A DNA stretch of 20,040 bases, from IMG/VR virus record IMGVR_UViG_2667527582_000006. The stretch is one strand, 5' to 3'. The notes under the pieces were generated by a model, which searched no databases, was not told the DNA's origin, and saw nothing but the letters and a program-made list of their open reading frames with translations. Positions 4,751 to 19,089 of the stretch are shown here, one piece after another. The position numbers and the translations under genes are program-made. Every line of letters starts with the position of its first letter. Position 1 is the stretch's first letter. The DNA is from a virus. Lineage: Duplodnaviria; Heunggongvirae; Uroviricota; Caudoviricetes.

Positions 4751-4808
4751 AAAAAGGGCGGCAGAGCAGTCACGGAGTAAAACTGATACCGCCAAACGTC
4801 ACCAGAAA
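4751..4808 (-). ncRNA. dicF: DicF small regulatory RNA
   Basis: Minus-strand sequence UUUCUGGUGACGUUUGGCGGUAUCAGUUUUACUCCGUGACUGCUCUGCCGCCCUUUUU matches remembered DicF, with a 3' U-tract; sits between ydfC and dicB as in Qin. Confidence 0.7.
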
Positions 4809-5974: not shown

Positions 5975-6613
5975 TTAAATATCTTGTTGAATTTTAAAGC
6001 ATACGCCCAATATGCAAGATAGATCATCCAGCATAATTGAAGGGTAGCGAGGATTCGTGGGGACTAAAAGAATATCCGGCCCTTCTATCTCCAGTTTACG
6101 AATGACAGGTGTTGTGGTCCCTTTGGGTAAGGCAAGGACAATATTTCCTGGTTGTACGGTTCGATCGGGATCAACAAAAACTGTTGAACCATTTGGGATG
6201 GAAACTCCCCCACCAGATGTTGACATACTGTCACTCTCTAGAACAACTGCAAAGGTATTGACCGGGATTTCTCCGACAAGCTGCACACAAGAGGTTATTG
6301 AGGAATTTTTCATATAATCACTCCAGCTTGCTGCCTGCTGAAGTGATAGTAGCGGAACCGTTTTTATCGGCGGTAAAGATAGATCAAGCGAATCACCTGT
6401 ATTTAACTCTCCTCCATTAAGAAGCCAATTTTCGTTTACTTTCAATATTTTTGCCAGTGAACTTATGTAACGCGAGGACGGCGCTCCTCCACCGTTCATC
6501 CATTGACTTACGGAGCCTTTTGATGCGCCAGTGCCATTGACAAGGTCTTTGCCTTTCAGGTTTAGCGCATGCATACGTTGGGTTATGCGTTCAGATATAG
6601 TTTGCTTGCTCAT
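5975..6613 (-). CDS. CI-like prophage repressor (N-terminal HTH, C-terminal S24/LexA-like autopeptidase)
   Basis: 212 aa; HTH region KDLVNGTGASKGSVSQWMNG; S24-like region with Ser in VVLESDSMS and Lys in PVIRKLE; divergent from cro-like gene. Confidence 0.85.
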   Translation of the reverse strand: MSKQTISERITQRMHALNLKGKDLVNGTGASKGSVSQWMNGGGAPSSRYISSLAKILKVNENWLLNGGELNTGDSLDLSLPPIKTVPLLSLQQAASWSDYMKNSSITSCVQLVGEIPVNTFAVVLESDSMSTSGGGVSIPNGSTVFVDPDRTVQPGNIVLALPKGTTTPVIRKLEIEGPDILLVPTNPRYPSIMLDDLSCILGVCFKIQQDI

Positions 6614-6676
6614 GTTTTGATTTTAAAACACAGATGGTTTTGTTTCTTGACTTTCTTTGGTTTTGATTATTAAACT
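6612..6676. promoter_or_regulatory. Putative OR-like operator/promoter region between cI and cro
   Basis: ATGTTTTgattttAAAACAC at 6612-6631 overlaps the cI start codon; two further GGTTTTG(A/T)TT half-site-like repeats at about 6637 and 6659. Confidence 0.45.
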
Positions 6677-6704
6677 TTTGACGTTCAGTTTTATGGAGCG
6701 ACTC

Positions 6705-6935
6705 ATGAAAAAATCAGAAGTATTAGGCTATTTTGGCGGAGTTGTTAAAACAGCCGCAGCTCTAGGAACGTCAAAAACCACAGTCAGCATGTGGGGGGAA
6801 GAGGTTCCGTGGAAATGGGCGTTGCTAATTCAGGCAGTCACTGCCGGGGCGCTCAAATATGAGTTACACATACCGACGGTTGTCATTCCCGGTTCTGATC
6901 ATAATCCGCCTTCTAACCAAGGGGGGGATTCATGA
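6705..6935 (+). CDS. Cro-like HTH regulator (76 aa)
   Basis: MKKSEVLGYFGGVVKTAAALGTSKTTVSMWGEEVP... resembles P22-type Cro; GGAG 6 nt upstream; divergent from the repressor. Confidence 0.7.
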   Translation: MKKSEVLGYFGGVVKTAAALGTSKTTVSMWGEEVPWKWALLIQAVTAGALKYELHIPTVVIPGSDHNPPSNQGGDS

Positions 6936-7357
6936 AAATCAAGCATGAACACATCCGCATGGCGATGAATGCCTGGGCGCATCCGGACGGCGAAAAAGTA
7001 CCGGCTGCGAAAATTACCAAAGCGTATTTCGAGCTGGGAATGACGTTCCCGGAACTGTATGACGACAGCCATCCGGAAGCCCTGGCTCGCAATACCCAGA
7101 AAATTTTCCGCTGGGTAGAGAAAGACACCCCTGATGCAGTTGAAAAAATTCAGGCGTTGTTACCAGCGATCGAAAAGGCAATGCCACCTTTGCTGGTGGC
7201 CAGAATGCGCAGCCACAGTTCAGCTTATTTTCGGGAGCTGGTGGAGACGCGGGAGCGACTGGTGAGAGACGCTGATGATTTTGTCGCAGTGGCAATCGCC
7301 GGTTTCAATCAGATGAACCGTGGTGGCCCGGCAGGAAATGCTGTGGCAGTACATTGA
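6932..7357 (+). CDS. CII-like / YdaT-like regulatory protein (141 aa)
   Basis: ATG overlaps the cro stop (ATGA); G-rich SD; position after cro matches CII/YdaT of Rac-type immunity regions. Confidence 0.5.
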   Translation: MKIKHEHIRMAMNAWAHPDGEKVPAAKITKAYFELGMTFPELYDDSHPEALARNTQKIFRWVEKDTPDAVEKIQALLPAIEKAMPPLLVARMRSHSSAYFRELVETRERLVRDADDFVAVAIAGFNQMNRGGPAGNAVAVH

Positions 7358-7428
7358 CTGACAATAGCCATATCGAATCGCTTCCGGCAACTCGTGAGTA
7401 AAAAGATTCGGTATCAGAAGAGGTGAGT

Positions 7429-8499
7429 ATGGCTAACGCCTGGCTCAGATTATGGCATGACATGCCAAATGACCCTAAGTGGCGAACAATTGCCAGGGTG
7501 TCAGGGCAGCCAATTGCAACAGTGATGGCAGTGTATATCCACCTCCTGGTGAGCGCGTCACGAAATGTCACGCGAGGTCACATTGATGTCACGACAGAAG
7601 ATTTGGCAAGTGCGCTCGACGTGACAGAAGAGGTAATTGATTCAATTTTGCAGACGATGCAGGGGCGGGTACTTGATGGTGATTTAATCACTGGATGGGA
7701 AAAACGCCAGGTGCTGAAAGAGGACAACGGCAATATTTCGCAAACCGCAAAATCTCCGGCAGAGCGCAAGAGGGCGCAGCGAGAGAGGGAAAGAAAGCGG
7801 GAACAAAATGGCGATTGTCACGGCGCGTCACGAAATGTCACGCACATGTCACGACGAGTCACGACAGATAAAGATACAGATAAAGATACAGATCAAGAAG
7901 ATCAAAACACTATGGTCCATGGCGTAAAAAACGCCACGAACCAGGCAGGGGATGTTCAGACCGTCAATCCTGGTCAGCCAGCAGGCACGACACCGGAAGC
8001 CGATTCAGCGTATGCGCTGAAAGCCGATTCGGGCGCTGTGCAGCAGGTGATGACCCCAAGGCCGGAGCAATCACACCAACTGCAGCAGCCTGAAGCCGAT
8101 TCCGCCATTCAGCGGGAAGCCGATCGGGTAGTCCCGGAAAACACCGGGCTGTCTGTGGGACGAGTGGATTATCCGGATGTGTTCGAACAGGTCTGGCGGG
8201 AGTACCCGTTGCGTGCCGGAGCAAACCCGAAGAAATCCGCTTTCAGTGCCTGGAAGGCCAGATTACGCGAGGGGGTGCCACCAGAGGCCATGCTGGATGG
8301 CGTGAGGCGTTACGCAAGATACTTGGCGGCTACCGGGAAAACGGGAACGGAATTTGTTCAGCGAGCGACGACGTTTTTTGGACCGGACCGGAATTTTGAG
8401 AACCCCTGGTTGCTCCCGGTAAGCGGCACGAACAACCAGCGTTGTGTGAATCATATTTCTGAACCGGATACCGAAATTCCACCGGGCTTCAGGGGGTAA
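7429..8499 (+). CDS. Replication initiator, lambda O-like (replisome organiser N-terminus), containing the origin iterons
   Basis: N-terminus MANAWLRLWHDMPNDPKWRTIARVSGQPIATVMAVYIHLL typical of the phage replisome-organiser N-terminal domain; GAGGTGAG SD; internal iteron arrays. Confidence 0.75.
   Translation: MANAWLRLWHDMPNDPKWRTIARVSGQPIATVMAVYIHLLVSASRNVTRGHIDVTTEDLASALDVTEEVIDSILQTMQGRVLDGDLITGWEKRQVLKEDNGNISQTAKSPAERKRAQRERERKREQNGDCHGASRNVTHMSRRVTTDKDTDKDTDQEDQNTMVHGVKNATNQAGDVQTVNPGQPAGTTPEADSAYALKADSGAVQQVMTPRPEQSHQLQQPEADSAIQREADRVVPENTGLSVGRVDYPDVFEQVWREYPLRAGANPKKSAFSAWKARLREGVPPEAMLDGVRRYARYLAATGKTGTEFVQRATTFFGPDRNFENPWLLPVSGTNNQRCVNHISEPDTEIPPGFRG
7556..7593 (+). repeat. Iteron cluster 1: four GTCAC(G/A) repeats at 10-11 bp spacing
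   Basis: Copies at about 7557, 7567, 7577 and 7588; the 18-mer CGTCACGAAATGTCACGC recurs identically at 7826-7843. Confidence 0.6.
7817..7888 (+). repeat. Iteron cluster 2 (five GTCACG repeats at 10-11 bp spacing) followed by GATAAAGATACA x2 tandem repeat; candidate ori
   Basis: Copies at about 7817, 7827, 7837, 7848 and 7858, then GATAAAGATACAGATAAAGATACA and an A-rich stretch, all inside the O-like ORF. Confidence 0.6.
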
Positions 8500-8539
8500 G
8501 TGTTGATTTCTGGTCATGAGGTAATTTTCAGGAGGGCTT

Positions 8540-8962
8540 GTGGCAAAAGTTTTTACACAAGAAGAGCGAGAAAAAATTAAAGGGCAGGTTGTTGAACTCG
8601 TACGCCAGAGTGGGCGTGAGACGTTACGGCAACTGGAAGTCAAGACAGGTGCGACAAGATATCTGATGAGCGTTCTCGCAAGAGAGCTGGTTGCCAGCGG
8701 CGATGTATACAACTCCGGCTACGGGTTATTCCCCTCTGAACAGGCGCGTAAGGACTGGCAAAACGCCCGCAAAAAACTCTCGAGGGCAAAGGTGAAGAAA
8801 CCTGCTGTGGTTGATCCGGACCTTATCTGGTCATCACCTGACGGAGAAATACGTCGCTACGACAGTCGCCTAAACATAATCTGTCGCGAGTGCCGGAAGA
8901 GTGAAGCTATGCAGCGTGTACTGGCTTTCTATCAGGGTAATTTTCAGGAGGCGGTACTGTGA
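8540..8962 (+). CDS. Hypothetical protein (140 aa), replication-module position
   Basis: GTG start with AGGAGG 4 nt upstream; basic, possibly DNA-binding; no recognised motif. Confidence 0.5.
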   Translation: MAKVFTQEEREKIKGQVVELVRQSGRETLRQLEVKTGATRYLMSVLARELVASGDVYNSGYGLFPSEQARKDWQNARKKLSRAKVKKPAVVDPDLIWSSPDGEIRRYDSRLNIICRECRKSEAMQRVLAFYQGNFQEAVL

Positions 8963-9019
8963 GTGAAATTAGCTATCAGGCTTCAATTACCGCTGGCATT
9001 CGCATCAAAGGAGAGGAGC

Positions 9020-9376
9020 ATGGAAATAAAACCAGAGGATGAGTTAAGCAATATCGTTTTATTTCCGGTAAAAGAGGATGACCCTCGTAATCAGGTTAAT
9101 TTTCTTTATGAGCCATCGGAAAGACCATATTGTCATCACGCCTCTGTCCGGGTTGACGAAAAAGAGCGTCAGGTCCGCTGTAAAATCTGCGGTGCAGTTG
9201 TGGAGCCATTTGACTGGATGCTCTCTGTGGCGAAAAGAGAAACCAGACTGGCAGATGATGTAAGGCTCTTGCGTCAGGAGGAGCGGGAAAGGCGAAAAAA
9301 TATAGAAAAGCTAATTCAGATTGAGCGTAACGCGAAAGCGCGGATACGCAGGGCGACAAAATCCAGAACTGAATAA
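9020..9376 (+). CDS. Hypothetical protein (118 aa) with Cys/His cluster and basic coiled-coil-like C-terminus
   Basis: ATG at 9020 with AGGAGAGGAG SD; CHHASVRVDEKERQVRCKICG possible zinc-binding; the track ORF begins at an upstream GTG (8963). Confidence 0.5.
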   Translation: MEIKPEDELSNIVLFPVKEDDPRNQVNFLYEPSERPYCHHASVRVDEKERQVRCKICGAVVEPFDWMLSVAKRETRLADDVRLLRQEERERRKNIEKLIQIERNAKARIRRATKSRTE

Positions 9377-9469
9377 TTAAATTTAGCTCTGTTAAAAATT
9401 TAATCCTTAACCGGAGGGATTTCTGCACCCTCAGAACATCAGGAGGCCGCCCGAAAGGGCGGTAGTTAA

Positions 9470-9652
9470 ATGCGAAAGTTTAAAATAATTATTGAAACGG
9501 GAATAGCCGGTGGAGATTTCGAGGATGAATTCGAAGTGGATGATGATGCGACGCCTGATGAAATACATGACGAAGCAAAAGATATTTTCTTTAACTACTG
9601 CAATTACTCATATCACGAAATAAAAGACGAAGAGGAAGAACAAAATGGCTGA
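9470..9652 (+). CDS. Small highly acidic protein (60 aa)
   Basis: MRKFKIIIETGIAGGDFEDEFEVDDDATPDEIHDE...; SD AGGAGG separated from the ATG by a GNRA-loop hairpin. Confidence 0.45.
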   Translation: MRKFKIIIETGIAGGDFEDEFEVDDDATPDEIHDEAKDIFFNYCNYSYHEIKDEEEEQNG

Positions 9653-10484: not shown

Positions 10485-10629
10485 ATACAGCGAACGCCAT
10501 TGGTTTAGTTGGATATTTACTGTGCCGGACAAAAACGGTTTGCGGGGAAATCTTAGTTAAGTAGAATGACTGCGGGTGCTTGAGGCTATCTGTCTCAGGC
10601 ATGAACACCAAAAGGCAGATAGAGAAAAG

Positions 10630-10693
10630 CCCCAGTTAACATTACGCGTCCTGCAAGACGCTTAACATTAATCTGAGGCCATATCTATGCGAC
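10630..10693 (-). ncRNA. Putative Sok-like antisense RNA of the hok locus (extent approximate)
   Basis: Minus-strand promoter-like TTGACC (10729-10724), 18-nt spacer, TAATCT (10705-10700); the transcript would be antisense to the leader-ORF start region, as in hok/sok. Confidence 0.3.
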
Positions 10694-10746
10694 ACATAGA
10701 GATTAGCCTCTTACGGACCGAAAGGTCAAGGAGAAGCAGGCTATGA
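10687..10746 (+). CDS. Putative mok-like leader ORF (19 codons), translationally coupled to hok
   Basis: ATG at 10687; stop TGA overlaps the hok ATG (cuAUGA). Confidence 0.3.
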   Translation: MRHIEISLLRTERSRRSRL

Positions 10747-12665: not shown

Positions 12666-13928
12666 ATGGCGCTCACTGACGCTAAAATCCGTGCCGCTAA
12701 ACCGGATGAAAAACCTTATAAACTTGCCGACAGCGGCAACATGTTCTTGCTCGTTCACCCTAACGGCTCTCGCTACTGGCGGCTCCGCTATCGGTTTCTG
12801 GGCAAAGAGAAAACGCTCGCTCTGGGGGTCTATCCTGAAGTCTCGTTATCAGAAGCAAGGGAAAAACGCGATACGGCGAGAAAGCTGATAGCTGAGGGAA
12901 CTGACCCATGCGAACAGAAAAGGATCAAAAAGTCGGTACCCGAAACAGCTCAGACATTTGAAGGCATCGCAAGACAGTGGCATAAGAGCAACAAAAAATG
13001 GTCAGCCTCACACAATGAGAGGATACTGAAAAGCCTCGAAACTCATGTTTTCCCCTTTATTGGTTCACGTGACATTACCACCCTCAGGACTCCCGATTTA
13101 CTTGTTCCCGTTAAAGCAGCCGAAGCAAAGGAGATATATGAAATCGCAGCGCGCCTTCAGCAGCGTATCACTGCAATCATGCGCTATGCTGCCCAGTCAG
13201 GCATTATCACCTATAACCCTGCCTTGGATATGGCTGGCGCGTTAACCACAGTGAAACGCCAGCACCGCCCTGCCCTCGCCTTAAATCGCATTTCAGAGCT
13301 TCTTGAACGACTGGATGCCTACAGAGGACAACCTCTCACCCGGCAGGCAACTAAACTCACCCTGCTTATCTTCATCCGTTCCAGCGAACTACGCTTTGCC
13401 AGGTGGTCTGAGATCGACTTCAAGAAAGCCATGTGGACCATTCCTCCTGAGCGGAAACCTATTGAAGGGGTCAAGTATTCCCATCGTGGCTCAAAAATGC
13501 GAACAGAGCATCTTGTGCCACTATCTACTCAGGCGGTGAATATACTGAAGCAGATCCACACTATCAGCGGAGAACATGAACTGATTTTCACCGGCGATCA
13601 CAATCCATGGAAACCCATGAGTGAGAACACTGTAAATAACGCACTGCGTCTGATGGGCTATGATACAAAGGTCGATGTCTGTGGTCACGGCTTCCGGGCA
13701 ATGGCCTGTAGTTCGTTGATTGAGTCAGGTCTTTGGTCCAGAGATGCGGTAGAACGGCAGATGAGCCATATGGAACGCAATTCGGTGAGGGCGGCGTATA
13801 TTCATAAAGCGGAACATCTGGATGAGCGCAAGCTGATGTTGCAGTGGTGGGCTGATTTTCTGGATGCCAATCGGGAAAGGGGAATTACGCCGTTTGACTA
13901 TGCGAAGATCAACCGGGGTAATATGTAG
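12666..13928 (+). CDS. P4-type (CP4-like) tyrosine integrase
   Basis: 420 aa; N-terminal MALTDAKIRAAKPDEKPYKLADSGNMFLLVHPNGSRYWRLRYRF arm-binding signature; C-terminal HGFRAM...RAAY catalytic motifs; AGGAGA SD. Confidence 0.85.
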   Translation: MALTDAKIRAAKPDEKPYKLADSGNMFLLVHPNGSRYWRLRYRFLGKEKTLALGVYPEVSLSEAREKRDTARKLIAEGTDPCEQKRIKKSVPETAQTFEGIARQWHKSNKKWSASHNERILKSLETHVFPFIGSRDITTLRTPDLLVPVKAAEAKEIYEIAARLQQRITAIMRYAAQSGIITYNPALDMAGALTTVKRQHRPALALNRISELLERLDAYRGQPLTRQATKLTLLIFIRSSELRFARWSEIDFKKAMWTIPPERKPIEGVKYSHRGSKMRTEHLVPLSTQAVNILKQIHTISGEHELIFTGDHNPWKPMSENTVNNALRLMGYDTKVDVCGHGFRAMACSSLIESGLWSRDAVERQMSHMERNSVRAAYIHKAEHLDERKLMLQWWADFLDANRERGITPFDYAKINRGNM

Positions 13929-13946
13929 CATATGTGTTTAAATATA

Positions 13947-13988
13947 TTAGCTCAGATTTGATCTGACACAGCTCTGGCACAGAGCTAA
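13947..13988. repeat. Nested palindromic element downstream of the integrase
   Basis: TTAGCTC...GAGCTAA outer arms enclosing TCAGAT-ttg-ATCTGA and AGCTCTG-gca-CAGAGCT. Confidence 0.4.
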
Positions 13989-14095
13989 ACCTAATCTGCA
14001 GGCAGCTCTGTTCCATAGGCGGAAGTTTATCTTTGTAGCCTAGATGCCAGTTAGGAAGAAAATAGAGACAGGAAAGATGATGACTAAATCAGTCT

Positions 14096-14118
14096 CCCAC
14101 CCGCACTGTGCGGGTGGG
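14096..14118. repeat. GC-rich hairpin (9-bp stem CCCACCCGC / GCGGGTGGG), possible terminator in the convergent intergenic region
   Basis: Perfect inverted repeat with 5-nt loop; lies between the convergent integrase and MTase genes. Confidence 0.35.
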
Positions 14119-14458
14119 ATATGTCTTTCCGAGAGAATACCGGCGGCAGCGAGCATCGTTAATTTTAGCTACAAAAGCTGTCCGGAGATGGCGGGTCAAG
14201 ATCAGTCGGAAGATCTCTAAAAGTGGATGGGCCGTTTTGCTGGGATTCTTAGATTGGCAAAAAAGTGGTGAAGCCATCAGATAGGAAGTGGATGGCGCAG
14301 TATTCAGTCTAACACTGAGGAATATTGTGATAATGAAAAGGCTACATATGTAGTGATGTGATTTACTCCCATAGCAAACGCAAACTGTGGCAGTATTACA
14401 TTGGCTGCTTCAGGAAAGGGGGCATCACATCACGACATTTTCTTCCACTGCAGGGTCA

Positions 14459-15775
14459 TTAGCCTGCTGTTCGCTCCAGACCCTGGTTCTTACCAGCCAG
14501 TATTTCGGCTTTTTTCATAGTTTCGACCAACTGTTCCGAGACAGCACGGATGACATTCATGCAGACAGAGTTGCCAAATTGCTTGTAGATCTGGCCCTGT
14601 GAAACAGCATCGACGATGTAGTCGTCAGGGAATCCCTGTAGACGTGCACATTCGCGCGGAGTTAGCTTGCGTGGGTTCCTACCCAAATGTGACTGGTCAA
14701 TCAGGATTTCGGAGCCGTCCTTGTAATAACGTGCACTGATGGTATTAGTGTATTCGCTGTCCTTGTTGAAAAGAGAATAGCCGAAACCGTTACCTTTCTT
14801 TTCGTGTTCCAGTTTCCGTTTCTGGTGGCCTATCCACAGTCTATCCGAGATGGTATATCTGTCTTGTGATAGAGGCAGACGATCGAGGTCTTCCAGAATG
14901 TCACCAACACGGGTCGGAGTCATAGGAGGTACCGGCCATCTGAATACACTGTCGAAATCCACGCCCCTATAATAGTCACGGTCAAAACCAACGATGAAAA
15001 TACGTTCACGGTTCTGGGGGGCACCGAAGTCACCTGCACGCAGTACACGGTAATCAACCCAGTAATTGAGTTTTTCGGACAGAGCATTGCGGGCATCCTC
15101 ACTAATCGGGATATCGTCCGGAACGGAATGGGTTCCATTGCCCCGCAGGATATCGAGAATGGTTTTCAGGGTACGACCCTTATCATGTCCCTGCAGTTGC
15201 TTGACATTTTCCAACATGAATGCCTTTGGACGCTTGGCTGTCATTATCCGCTGAATTTCGAAGAACATGGTTCCACGGGTATCGCTGAAACCTTTTTTCA
15301 AACCGGCCTGTGAAAAAGCCTGGCATGGAAATCCGCCAAGCAGTACATCGTGATCAGGAATGTCGGATGCCGGAATTCTAGTGATGTCACCTTGGGGCAT
15401 TTCGCCGAAATTCGTTAGATAGGTCTTCTGGGAGAACTTGTCCCATTCGGATGAGAATACACAGTGCCCTCCCTGCTGCTGATAAGGAAGACGAATACCT
15501 CCGATACCAGCAAACAGATCGATGAAGGTGAAATTGCATTCATTTTCAGGCTTCTGGCGGAAAGGTGCGTTTTCCAGATATTCAGTCATCTTCTTTTCCA
15601 CATCGAGAATGGCCTGCCATTTGGCGGAAGACGGTTCATGTTCCTCTTCTTCCCATCCTCGGACTGTACGTTCTCCGGTGGCACCGAGTCCGAGAAGATT
15701 GGCAAATTCGGTGCGACCTATGCCTAATTTTTTTCTCATATTTTTGATATATTGGAATTTATTCTTACTGTCCAT
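14459..15775 (-). CDS. DNA (cytosine-5)-methyltransferase, Dcm/EcoRII/SsoII family, with N-terminal HTH regulatory extension
   Basis: Motif I FIDLFAGIGG, motif IV GGFPCQAFS, ENV, QNRERIFIVG, TISARYYKDGSEILID, TPRECARLQGFPDDY; N-terminal GIGRTEFANLLGLGATGERTVRGWEEEE HTH-like segment. Confidence 0.9.
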   Translation of the reverse strand: MDSKNKFQYIKNMRKKLGIGRTEFANLLGLGATGERTVRGWEEEEHEPSSAKWQAILDVEKKMTEYLENAPFRQKPENECNFTFIDLFAGIGGIRLPYQQQGGHCVFSSEWDKFSQKTYLTNFGEMPQGDITRIPASDIPDHDVLLGGFPCQAFSQAGLKKGFSDTRGTMFFEIQRIMTAKRPKAFMLENVKQLQGHDKGRTLKTILDILRGNGTHSVPDDIPISEDARNALSEKLNYWVDYRVLRAGDFGAPQNRERIFIVGFDRDYYRGVDFDSVFRWPVPPMTPTRVGDILEDLDRLPLSQDRYTISDRLWIGHQKRKLEHEKKGNGFGYSLFNKDSEYTNTISARYYKDGSEILIDQSHLGRNPRKLTPRECARLQGFPDDYIVDAVSQGQIYKQFGNSVCMNVIRAVSEQLVETMKKAEILAGKNQGLERTAG

Positions 15776-15887
15776 CCCATGCTCACCTTATCCGGTTTTA
15801 TTCCCGGCGATAGTATCACTGTACGGATGATCAATCAATGAGGGGGTCTCATGTCTATCGACATTTCTGGGCATAGTCCGAATCTTT

Positions 15888-17162
15888 TCAGACTGTAAAA
15901 ATTTCGCGGGTCAGTTCTACCAGCTTTTCTCCTGTTGAATACAGCCGAAGTAGTTCTAGGGGATCCTGGTAATGGCAATGAATCGGCGGATATTCGGACA
16001 GACAGTCAGCTTCTGTAACCAGAACCTTTCCCCTTTCCGCAACATGGACAGCCCTGAGTGGCTTTTCTGTTCCAGGAAAAATGAAATGGTTTGTGATGTG
16101 GGTACCGACCGGCACTAGGTAAGAAAGCGCCTTCTGGTAGAAAAACTGTTTTACCAGATCCGGCCAACCAGGAGCACTATCCGGTGTCTTCGCATCATAG
16201 TATTTGGCATCTATGATCGCGACGTGCGTTTTTTCTGCATTGTGGAGAACCGTATCCGTTCTCTGGCTCTTGTTGGCAACGGGAACAAACCTGTCACTGC
16301 CGGCCCGATACACGGGAATAGGCAATTTATTGTTAACTCGGTATTTACCCACCAAGCATTCATCCAGCATGGCTTCCCACAGACTGTGAAACTTCCTGAC
16401 ACCGATAAGAACCCCGCCATTCCGCATTCCTCTCCCTGTTTCAAGATACATGATCAGTCTCCGCAAAAGGAAAATATCCCTTTCGGAATAGCTGAACTGC
16501 AGTTCTCTTCTTAGGTGTACAACCCATGAGAAAACATTTCCCTCAGGACGCGGAACATTCTGCAGTCGTTCAGGAGTGCCCTGACTGCCTGTCCAGAGCA
16601 TTCCGTATACCGGATAGAGCTCCCTCATTACAGAGGCATGAATCTTTGCTGTCTCGCTATCGGTGAGGTAGCGCGAACGTGTGGTTACAGGATCGATATA
16701 TACAGGCCCAGATGGGCTAGTATAGGCAGTCCCTCGGGCAATTGTCTCCGGCCATACAACTTTTCCGGAGTTGGTTGTATCGACTCTAATCCGGCGGACA
16801 TAGAGACCATTCGTCTGATAGTCGTCAATCAGTGCAGTTGCCAACGACAGGGATTCACCACCGATAAGTCCGGTTCCTGCATCCCCATCAAAAACACCGG
16901 TGTCTCTATCTCGGTAGAATTTCAGGAGTGAGCGGAGCAGATAATGTGCTGAAAGAGCCTGCGATTCACGAGAAGAACTGTTATTTCGTGGCAGAAATAC
17001 AGCCAGACCTCCACTGAAAGACATGACTCCACAGAAATGGATTTTCTGCATGTCGGGGGCCAGCAGCCCCCTGTTTCTCAGCTCATCGAGCACGGTCGCA
17101 GGAATACTGCGATCGGTGACAGGTGTCCTGTCTGAAAGATACAGAATATCAGCTGGCAACAT
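15888..17162 (-). CDS. McrC-like PD-(D/E)xK nuclease subunit
   Basis: 424 aa; C-terminal HVAIIDAKYY matching the (D/E)xK catalytic core; start overlaps the upstream AAA+ gene by 14 nt. Confidence 0.7.
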   Translation of the reverse strand: MLPADILYLSDRTPVTDRSIPATVLDELRNRGLLAPDMQKIHFCGVMSFSGGLAVFLPRNNSSSRESQALSAHYLLRSLLKFYRDRDTGVFDGDAGTGLIGGESLSLATALIDDYQTNGLYVRRIRVDTTNSGKVVWPETIARGTAYTSPSGPVYIDPVTTRSRYLTDSETAKIHASVMRELYPVYGMLWTGSQGTPERLQNVPRPEGNVFSWVVHLRRELQFSYSERDIFLLRRLIMYLETGRGMRNGGVLIGVRKFHSLWEAMLDECLVGKYRVNNKLPIPVYRAGSDRFVPVANKSQRTDTVLHNAEKTHVAIIDAKYYDAKTPDSAPGWPDLVKQFFYQKALSYLVPVGTHITNHFIFPGTEKPLRAVHVAERGKVLVTEADCLSEYPPIHCHYQDPLELLRLYSTGEKLVELTREIFTV

Positions 17163-19089
17163 CTTGCGGATCCCTGTTCATGTCAACAGGAGTGCCCACC
17201 CCTTCAAGTCTGTTCTCTACGGCAGTGGAGAAAACAGCCATGTCATTGCGAAATGCTGCAGATAGGTTGCCGAACGTTCTGAAGGTAGACGCAAATATTT
17301 TCTGGTGTCCGACATGTCTCAGCACATCATCCCACAAATAGATGAACAGTTTTCCGCCAAGGGCAGCTTTCGCTGCTTCCCTATTTTCCAGTTCTTTAGA
17401 ATCTAGGAAAAACGGGCCGATCAGACGATCCTCTGCTATTTCACATTCGACAAGGGTGTCATTAATAATTTGAGCAAAATCGCGCCAGAGTACCGAATAT
17501 TTTCCTGAATTGGTGGTGAAAACGATTTCGGTTTGTGGGATCTCCGGTTTTGATAAATCGATTGGTAGATATTCGAAATTCCAGCGCCGTTTGAATGCAG
17601 TATCCAGCGGCATAACTGCCTGATCACTGCTGTTCATGGTAGCCAGTAGAGACATATTGGACGGGATCCGTAAGCTATCGACAGGAGTACATCCCATAGT
17701 ACCTAGTTCCGTATTTATATACTCGATCATATCCGGATCAGTGGCATTGATGCTGTAGGTACTCGTTCCATCAGGCTCCCTGTCTAGAAGCTGGAAAAGC
17801 TCGCCGAAGACAGCTGCAGCAGAAGCACGGTTGATTTCTTCGATAATGAGACAGACCTTTCTGTCTGGACGAGCAATGGCCAGTATGAGTGCGCAGGTAA
17901 AGGGGCCTGGTCTGAAACTGTAGGTTATGCTGCTTTCTCCCTGTTCATTCTTTTCCATTTTAGGCTTCAGGGCACCGACAAAATCGTTATGCTGAGTATC
18001 AGGATGGAAAACTGTGACAATCTTTTCTGCACCGTCACTCATTTCACCATGGACCCTGTAGCTTTTTCCCGTACCGGGTGCCCCATAGAAGATTCTGTTC
18101 GTTCCACCGGTCACTCTAGGTCCGGATACGGAGGCTCTGGTCGATGACTCGAAAAAGAACTTGCCCTCTCTGTTCCGGATACTCATCCCCAGCCATAAAC
18201 CGGAAACCAGAACCGATATTTTTTCAAGTGAATCGGGAGTATCCAAGAGACCCTTTCTGATGAAAATATATTTCTCCAGCGGAACAGAAAAATGGACGGG
18301 ATTCTGGACATACAGCGCATTGCCGGGTTCCCTGGATGGGCGGAGAAGAAATGCCCTGTCTATATCATTCCATGAAACAAATTCGGCATCGGGGTCAGTC
18401 CCCAGTAAAGGCTCAAACTGACCGGACCAGCCAATGGTTGTCATTATTCTGAACAGCAGTTCATCCCCATCAGGAACACTGAACATATAAGGAAGACTGG
18501 GCATATATCTCCTTTGAAGGTAATCATATGTTTCTTGAGAACGCACCAGATCAAGAATCAGGGTACCGAGTGTTTCCGAGCTTACATTCGGGACCGGCAA
18601 TGATGCCAGCAAGACCGATTTGACAAAATCATCGGATTGCCTATAACTCTTTTTCCCAGTTTTTGAGCTCGTGTTTATTAGATTTTTTGCCTCAAGTCTT
18701 GTTCTGGGATCTTTGAAAGCCCAGAAAAAGTTACTGCGGCTGTAGATGTCCAGCGAAACGAGCGCCTGCTCGTTTGACGTTCCGCTTTCGATCATTGCTT
18801 CGAATTCTGCCGGAAACATATTTTTTTTGATTTCTTCGAATACAGAGATGTAGTTGTCCAGTAGTCTTACAAATGGCCCAATCTTTAGCATATACATCAG
18901 ATACTGGCATGGTATATAACAGTGATACCCGCTTCCAGTTTTCATCCGTGCTGTATGGTCCAGCAATGTCAGTCCGGTTGTTGATAGAACCGTTCTTGTT
19001 TCATCATCGAATCCGATCTCATCGAATTGCCATGCCGATTCAGGTTCATTTTTGAACCAGTTCATCACCATATCCAGTTCTGAAAGCAT
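17149..19089 (-). CDS. McrB-like AAA+ (AAA_5) NTPase with about 330-aa uncharacterised N-terminal domain
   Basis: Walker A GAPGTGKS; Walker B/McrB signature LIIEEINRASAAAVFGELFQLLDR; NxxD-like MNSSD; N-terminal 330 aa without recognisable motif. Confidence 0.75.
   Translation of the reverse strand: MLSELDMVMNWFKNEPESAWQFDEIGFDDETRTVLSTTGLTLLDHTARMKTGSGYHCYIPCQYLMYMLKIGPFVRLLDNYISVFEEIKKNMFPAEFEAMIESGTSNEQALVSLDIYSRSNFFWAFKDPRTRLEAKNLINTSSKTGKKSYRQSDDFVKSVLLASLPVPNVSSETLGTLILDLVRSQETYDYLQRRYMPSLPYMFSVPDGDELLFRIMTTIGWSGQFEPLLGTDPDAEFVSWNDIDRAFLLRPSREPGNALYVQNPVHFSVPLEKYIFIRKGLLDTPDSLEKISVLVSGLWLGMSIRNREGKFFFESSTRASVSGPRVTGGTNRIFYGAPGTGKSYRVHGEMSDGAEKIVTVFHPDTQHNDFVGALKPKMEKNEQGESSITYSFRPGPFTCALILAIARPDRKVCLIIEEINRASAAAVFGELFQLLDREPDGTSTYSINATDPDMIEYINTELGTMGCTPVDSLRIPSNMSLLATMNSSDQAVMPLDTAFKRRWNFEYLPIDLSKPEIPQTEIVFTTNSGKYSVLWRDFAQIINDTLVECEIAEDRLIGPFFLDSKELENREAAKAALGGKLFIYLWDDVLRHVGHQKIFASTFRTFGNLSAAFRNDMAVFSTAVENRLEGVGTPVDMNRDPQDVAS

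Follow-up and report, generated by a model that had tools for sequence, protein, structure and literature searches.

A probable replication origin within the initiator gene of a Rac/Qin-like lambdoid prophage

Regularly spaced DNA repeats inside a gene for a replication initiator raise the question of whether they form the origin at which the encoded protein acts, serve some other purpose, or are no more than the imprint of a repeated peptide. We addressed this question for a 20,040-nt stretch of tailed-phage DNA (Caudoviricetes; IMG/VR record IMGVR_UViG_2667527582_000006), hereafter called the window. The gene concerned (7429..8499, + strand; ATG at 7429, stop at 8499) is preceded by a GAGG ribosome-binding site and encodes a replication initiator of 356 amino acids, and it lies among the early genes of a Rac/Qin-like lambdoid prophage. 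An initial annotation, made from the sequence alone, had likened its repeats to the origin iterons that lie within gene O of phage lambda. We conclude, with a probability of about 0.78, that positions 7553-7910 constitute the replication origin of this prophage, with both the iterons and an unwinding element located inside its own initiator gene. Such an arrangement comes as no surprise in principle; it merits a record because the support is good and the prophage family concerned is very common.

The repeats form two arrays of direct GTCAC(G/A) cores. Array 1 (7553..7593, + strand) contains four of them, at 7557, 7567, 7577 and 7588, of which the one at 7577 reads GTCACA, and array 2 (7816..7863, + strand) contains five GTCACG cores, at 7817, 7827, 7837, 7848 and 7858. 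Successive cores are 10, 10 and 11 bp apart in array 1 and 10, 10, 11 and 10 bp apart in array 2, with a gap of 229 bp between the arrays. The nine copies at a spacing of 10-11 bp described in the initial annotation are therefore all present, and to them must be added a tenth, inverted copy with GTCACG on the – strand (7620..7625, codons Asp-Val-Thr 64-66). The identical 18-mer that had been reported from both clusters extends to 21 nt (GCGCGTCACGAAATGTCACGC, at 7553-7573 and 7823-7843). Where at least three regularly spaced motif copies might be looked for within an initiator gene, this one holds nine direct copies and one inverted. The total number of GTCAC(G/A) words in the window is unremarkable (22 matches, 17.8 expected); what stands out is their concentration, as nine same-strand cores fall inside 310 nt. 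Shuffling with dinucleotides preserved gave clusters of at most four members in 1000 trials, and a Poisson estimate based on the background rate gives P ~1.5e-15. No further cluster of these words was found elsewhere in the 20-kb window.

Both arrays are translated. The SRNVT peptide repeat noted in the initial annotation appears as ASRNVT at residues 43-48 and again at 133-138. Array 1 encodes ASRNVTRGHIDVT, which forms the end of helix 1 and the loop between helices 1 and 2 of a winged-helix domain, and array 2 encodes CHGASRNVTHMSRRVT, in a disordered linker directly after that domain. With a DNA period of 10-11 bp, the hexamer passes through all three reading frames and is translated as Ser-Arg, Val-Thr or Gly-His.

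The strongest evidence on the nature of the repeats comes from homologous genes. The initial annotation had taken absence of the repeats from homologues of the same protein sequence as an argument against its reading, and the opposite was found. Using seed peptides from outside the repeat regions (WHDMPND and TIARVSGQP), we recovered 38 homologous loci, with one genome per species; individual loci are cited below by number. In about 24 of them, ranging from Entomomonas (35% GC) to Pseudothauera (68% GC), GTCAC occurs at identical gene offsets, 129/139/149/160 and ~387-418, and inverted at 193. The inverted core at gene nucleotide 193 is present in most GTCACG-type relatives, where Val is encoded by GTG in 17/17 cases. 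Codon choice was examined in 20 diverged genes, from hosts with 35-68% GC and with a mean nucleotide identity of 68%, and the synonymous positions of the iterons proved to be frozen. In array 1, the codon is TCA for Ser in 19/20 genes, GTC for Val in 20/20 (at each of two positions), ACG for Thr in 20/20 and 19/20, GGT for Gly in 20/20 and CAC for His in 19/19. In array 2, where hexamer-regex anchoring misplaced several loci and the results rest on codon-by-codon listings and exact motif positions, TCA is used for Ser in 20/20, compared with 15% in the remainder of these genes, GTC for Val in 20/20, compared with 24%, and CAC for His in 18/18. The normalised codon entropy of conserved residues is 0.14 for iteron codons compared with 0.83 elsewhere (Mann-Whitney p = 4.7e-6), and at equally conserved residues outside the iterons synonymous codons vary freely. 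Polymorphism follows the same pattern, since among 57 E. coli alleles 2/60 iteron-core positions are variable versus 109/1011 elsewhere. A scan of viral contigs, from which 80 loci were kept, yielded only alleles that are 97-100% identical and are informative for polymorphism and 12-mer copy number alone. The repeats are thus conserved as DNA beyond what coding needs.

Some lineages have exchanged the iteron word throughout. GTAACG is found in both arrays of L022, L025, L032 and L034, and CGAACGC in both arrays of L029, L031, L033 and L037. Three closely related proteins, which share the core offsets 160, 181, 224, 412, 422 and 451, are divided between two iteron types: L024 carries GTCACG, and L022 and L025 carry GTAACG. 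In the Val-Thr frame this amounts to a synonymous change from GTC to GTA in every copy of both arrays. Copy number varies as well. In alleles of Escherichia albertii (L003) and of the O157 type, and in P0013 and P0023, an insertion of 7 amino acids (TTCHGVSL) creates two extra cores in array 1, and the repeat-encoded loop and linker tolerate such iteron-adding insertions. A counterpart of array 2 stands ahead of the A-rich run in most lineages; where divergence is greatest it is weak or not recognised. The distant relatives L036 and L038 (Serratia, Pantoea) have TACGTAG-like words at the places where other relatives have iterons; in these two, an extra domain that appears by eye to be T5orf172/GIY-YIG-like (…VGISRNPWAR.KDLK…) follows the N-domain, ~330-520 nt into the gene.

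Directly after array 2 lies an A-rich tract, which we regard as a putative DNA-unwinding element (7864..7910, + strand) and which encodes Asp-Lys-Asp-Thr repeats. Both features that the initial annotation had placed here were recovered: the tandem duplication is a 12-mer, ACAGATAAAGAT, present in 2.9 copies at 7864-7898 (Tandem Repeats Finder), and at 7860-7919 the GC content drops to 0.35 with an AT skew above 0.5. An AT-rich region adjoins the repeats in the relatives too. In most lineages, including those with other iteron types, GATAAA/GATACA hexamers (encoding DKDK/DTDT) form a run that starts no more than a few bases after the last iteron; in a few lineages this run is short or absent. 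The tract stays AT-rich even in hosts with 65-69% GC, such that the 50 nt after the last iteron have an AT content of 0.62-0.68 in genes whose overall AT content is 0.31-0.35. Codon choice again departs from that of the surrounding gene: in ten GC-rich loci the ratio of GAT/AAA to GAC/AAG is 57:8 within the tract, as against 121:229 in the remaining parts of these genes (Fisher p = 6e-16). The anchoring pattern used in this test fixes the first one or two codons, and the bias persists once these are excluded. The copy number of ACAGATAAAGAT differs among the 57 E. coli alleles, which are otherwise 97-99% identical, with two extra copies in L118 and 12 extra nucleotides in H24/H26.

The protein itself is recognised as an initiator by PHROGs (family 3729, 'replication initiation protein', E 1.7e-256), where its N-terminal and C-terminal halves are also matched by separate families. 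The whole protein had no match above threshold in Pfam. Its N-terminal 134 residues scored 16.4 bits (cut-off 23.3, E 0.009) against Phage_rep_org_N (PF09681), with model positions 1-119 of 121 aligned; because the alignment covers the full model, distant homology is plausible. The score for TIGR01714 was also below threshold (19 bits, cut-off 49.8), and none of 75 relatives (0/75) matched PF09681 at E<=0.01. Phage_rep_O, the family of lambda O, matched neither the whole protein nor its N-terminal part, even at E<=10. The comparison with lambda made in the initial annotation therefore stands with respect to architecture and does not extend to sequence homology with O; the N-terminal domain is instead a winged helix like that at the N-terminus of DnaD. 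AlphaFold models built from the 75-sequence alignment place this winged helix at residues 1-128, followed by a disordered linker (~129-244), a helical C-domain (~245-320; 249-317 in the model) and a tail resembling DnaT. The N-domain is modelled with confidence and comprises helices 3-14, 16-25 and 29-45, a loop at 46-55, helices 56-63 and 67-77, a β-hairpin wing at 78-87 and a long helix at 110-127; the iteron-encoded loop has a lower predicted local distance difference test (pLDDT) score.

The last ~20 residues (8437-8496) form the tail QRCVNHISEPDTEIPPGFRG (…VNHISEPDTEIPPGFRG; SEPDTEIPPGFRG) and closely match the extreme C-terminus of host DnaT (PDB 2ru8, 6aep, 9zbt). The DnaT equivalog NF002770 scores 18 bits against a cut-off of 201, with residues 333-356 alone matching, and the DnaT DNA-binding domain (PF17948) is not in the window protein; it is found at the C-terminus of 19/75 relatives. 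The tail may mimic the motif through which DnaT interacts with the host primosome. Since it matches DnaT and recurs in several relatives with unrelated middle domains, it suggests that the initiator may plug into the host primosome and so take the place of a phage loader. In relatives, a lambda-P-like gene (L004, O157:H7 allele) or one for an IstB/DnaC-like ATPase (L025) lies downstream of the initiator, and the C-domain is swapped together with that loader gene. In O157:H7 MB41-1 (L120 7001-8498), for example, this N-domain with its repeats is joined to a C-domain resembling the DNA-binding domain of DnaT, and the next gene is labelled 'replication protein P'. Gene content in the relatives accords with the way in which lambdoid replication modules pair an initiator with a loader, with a constant ori/N-domain cassette and exchangeable C-domains.

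Could the DNA repeats nevertheless be a functionless by-product of protein-level selection for a peptide (ASRNVT and similar)? The peptide is indeed conserved, with S44, V47, T48, R49, G50 and S134 invariant in 75 homologues. However, one peptide repeat cannot yield a hexamer that is read in three frames (SR, VT, GH), synonymous positions are frozen inside the hexamers only, the synonymous GTC to GTA switch affects all copies of both arrays together, and the encoded peptides sit in a loop and a disordered linker. Fixed offsets, the use of three frames, frozen codons, concerted switching and iteron-adding insertions together exclude this idea for practical purposes, and we find it scarcely credible. 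On the comparative sequence evidence, the GTCACG words form an element that is preserved as DNA, irrespective of the peptide that they encode. The locus is a clean natural case of a DNA element that constrains codon choice and forces a conserved peptide inside a folded domain, and it cautions that protein conservation need not mean selection at the protein level.

A DNA-level element need not be an origin, and the main rival to the origin reading is that the arrays are control sites, involved in autorepression, a transcription roadblock, handcuffing and copy control, or incompatibility and exclusion, with the true origin elsewhere. Array 1 begins ~125 nt into the gene and ~270 bp from the A-rich tract, as might suit such sites, and in iteron plasmids the same sites serve initiation and control alike (Chattoraj 2000, as cited in PMC2647930). 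Array 2, however, borders directly on an A-rich tract for which most lineages show selection at the DNA level, which is the signature of an unwinding element rather than of an operator; the window has no other cluster of the motif; and the two roles are in any case compatible. We therefore consider exclusive control sites unlikely. Helically phased short repeats can also be found in pac sites and centromeres, and the arrays might on that account be bound by a host factor or by another phage protein, for instance as a packaging, partition or recombination site. The window's neighbours were searched by tblastn against 36 diverged loci from many genera, and the N-domain was found in 36/36, whereas none of the cI-like, cro-like, YdaT-like, DUF977 and zinc-ribbon genes, nor the C-domain, co-occurs with the repeats across these loci; of the phage-encoded modules, the N-domain alone thus accompanies them. 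A conserved host factor is unlikely as the binder because the iteron word differs between closely related initiators in related hosts (L024 versus L022 and L025), and the site lies in the early replication module, not beside the terminase. We regard binding by another protein as very unlikely.

Several observations weigh against the conclusion that 7553-7910 is the origin. That the initiator binds the repeats, that the adjoining DNA unwinds and that replication starts from this region is what we infer from the comparisons above. Array 1 is absent or unrecognisable in the distant lineages L028, L030, L035, L036 and L038 and so cannot be essential to the origin of the family; for the same reason, array 1 and the inverted copy are probably auxiliary in the window, contributing through looping, an enhancer effect or autoregulation. 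No N-domain residues that co-vary with iteron type were found outside the iteron-encoded loop. The DnaA box TTATNCACA, with up to one mismatch, has no match within 7400-8440, and its count in the window is at chance. The oriC 13-mer GATCTNTTNTTTT has a single two-mismatch match (7882-7894, – strand), which is not significant and provides no evidence, because matches in the window as a whole are fewer than the mean of the shuffles. No recognisable gene for a helicase loader or a helicase adjoins the initiator in the window allele, where a DUF977 gene and a zinc-ribbon gene follow directly downstream. The prophage itself may be defective or truncated, since a second integrase and a restriction-modification island follow the early region.

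If the region is the origin, its use might proceed as follows. Derepression of the prophage would lead to transcription from the cro-side promoter and to synthesis of the initiator, whose N-domain would bind cooperatively, along one helical face, to the (T)GTCACG cores. Array 2 would be the core site, and array 1 and the inverted copy, ~230-260 bp upstream, would act as auxiliary sites, perhaps via looping. The resulting nucleoprotein complex would destabilise the adjoining GATAAAGATACA tract, and the C-terminal part of the protein would bring the host DnaB loading machinery to the opened DNA. The binding, opening and helicase-loading steps of this scheme are modelled on lambda ori/O (PMC7466680) and on SPP1 oriL/G38P (PMC6316719, PMC5737612).

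This architecture has been established by experiment for lambda ori in O (PMC7466680) and for SPP1 oriL in gene 38 (PMC6316719, PMC5737612), and the window protein lies outside the sequence thresholds of both initiator families. Lambda O consists of an ori-specific N-domain and an exchangeable C-domain that matches the loader, a division that is seen here among the relatives, and the window module, like that of lambda, lies downstream of cro in a rightward early operon. The iterons themselves differ: those of lambda are ~19-bp palindromic inverted repeats roughly 24 bp apart, whereas in the window a core of 6-7 bp is repeated directly every 10-11 bp, and the two arrays so formed, 230 bp apart, are accompanied by the inverted copy. 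The window protein also lacks an O-family match, and the window allele lacks a P gene. The lambda origin occupies a central part of the initiator gene and has initiator-binding repeats followed by an AT-rich tract (PMC7466680); the repeats and the tract of the window are arranged alike. Shiga toxin (Stx) phages include six-iteron ori variants in which two extra iterons add 13 amino acids to O (PMC7466680), and extra iterons similarly lengthen the protein by 7 amino acids in L003, P0013 and P0023.

In SPP1, the AB boxes of oriL are direct repeats that are bound by G38P and adjoin an AT-rich unwinding element inside gene 38, and a 356-bp fragment is enough for replication in vitro (PMC6316719, PMC5737612). 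The window resembles this system in that repeats beside an AT-rich region are embedded in the initiator gene, where they would be bound in a comparable way. The end-to-end alignment with Phage_rep_org_N, and the name 'phage replisome organizer' that NCBI gives to relatives, likewise point to the G38P type, although the window protein falls under the PF09681 and TIGR01714 thresholds. SPP1 also encodes a loader (G39P) and a helicase (G40P), and a second site, oriR, lies at a distance of 13 kb, whereas both genes are missing from the window, whose 20 kb contain no second cluster. The N-domain shares its winged-helix fold with the N-terminal domain of DnaD from Bacillus and Geobacillus, and the similarity to E. 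coli DnaT is confined to the C-terminal ~20 residues. Unlike in the known systems, one of the two arrays lies inside a folded DNA-binding domain.

The window allele might be a one-protein replicon, in which an iteron-binding winged helix is fused to a C-terminal module ending in a copy of the host DnaT tail. If true, DnaB would be loaded at the origin by impersonation of DnaT in the host primosome (PriA/PriB/DnaC-DnaB), without a phage helicase loader. A second, more speculative idea starts from the loop between helices 1 and 2, the sole protein segment that changes with iteron type: because the iterons themselves encode it, a change of site would automatically alter its reader. We put both ideas forward tentatively and think them unlikely. 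More generally, definition of the origin gives a handle on the induction and replication of very common prophages and on the construction of compatible replicons, and the iteron type (GTCACG, GTAACG or CGAACGC) could predict incompatibility or exclusion at the level of replication between co-resident prophages.

The origin layout is not annotated for this prophage family, common as it is in E. coli. The N-terminal 495 nt of the gene are present in 2078 of 5426 complete E. coli genomes (38%), including O157:H7 prophages, and the wider protein family comprises 1019 clusters at 50% identity (E<=1e-10). Seven deposited Escherichia phage genomes (Tritos, Evi, 204576 and others) share a 1.3-kb segment with the window at 97-99% identity, and in them the gene is labelled 'replication protein, N-terminal phage replisome organiser', 'DNA replication protein O' or 'primosomal protein I'; RefSeq labels it 'hypothetical protein' or 'phage replisome organizer'. 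The Tritos record, the only phage record inspected, has no annotated origin feature. Searches of open-access full text, including two papers on the Eru types of Stx-phage replication regions, brought up no account of these repeats, and one in an older subscription journal is possible; a search on oriJ of Rac yielded nothing that bears on this gene.

Other sequence elements lie close to the arrays. An imperfect inverted repeat capable of forming a hairpin (7913..7943; DNA fold –8.7 kcal/mol, z = –3.2) follows the A-rich tract directly and was the sole item retained from a promoter and terminator scan of 6500-9500, in which counts were otherwise the same as in shuffles. It is a possible flank of the origin, and we take it to resemble the palindrome that flanks lambda ori. 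In L005-L016, L022, L025, L026 and others, a C-run (CCCCC…, encoding PPxP) stands right behind the GATAAA run; the sharp transition from A-rich to C-rich sequence in these relatives is not seen in the window allele. The linker contains a second direct repeat of 36 nt (7993-8028 and 8089-8124, 75% identical), which encodes PEADSA… twice. Rfam had no match in the region of the arrays and tract, and elsewhere in the window it matched only the DicF small RNA (4756-4807, – strand) and the sok antitoxin RNA (10574-10745, + strand), which are typical cargo of Qin/Rac-type prophages.

The surrounding genes are those of a lambdoid early region. Upstream of the initiator gene are the integrase and excisionase-side genes, a gene for a RecE-like exonuclease, a cI-like S24 repressor gene (5975-6613, – strand), a P22-Cro-like gene (6657-6935) and a YdaT-like gene (6932-7357). 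Downstream are genes for the DUF977 and zinc-ribbon proteins, hok/sok and a gene for a DUF968 protein. The second tyrosine integrase gene (12666-13928) is followed, up to 19089 and on the – strand, by genes for a C5 cytosine methylase, an LlaJI-type restriction endonuclease and an AAA_5 (McrB-like) ATPase, so that 12666-19089 resembles a restriction-modification island inserted in or beside the prophage.

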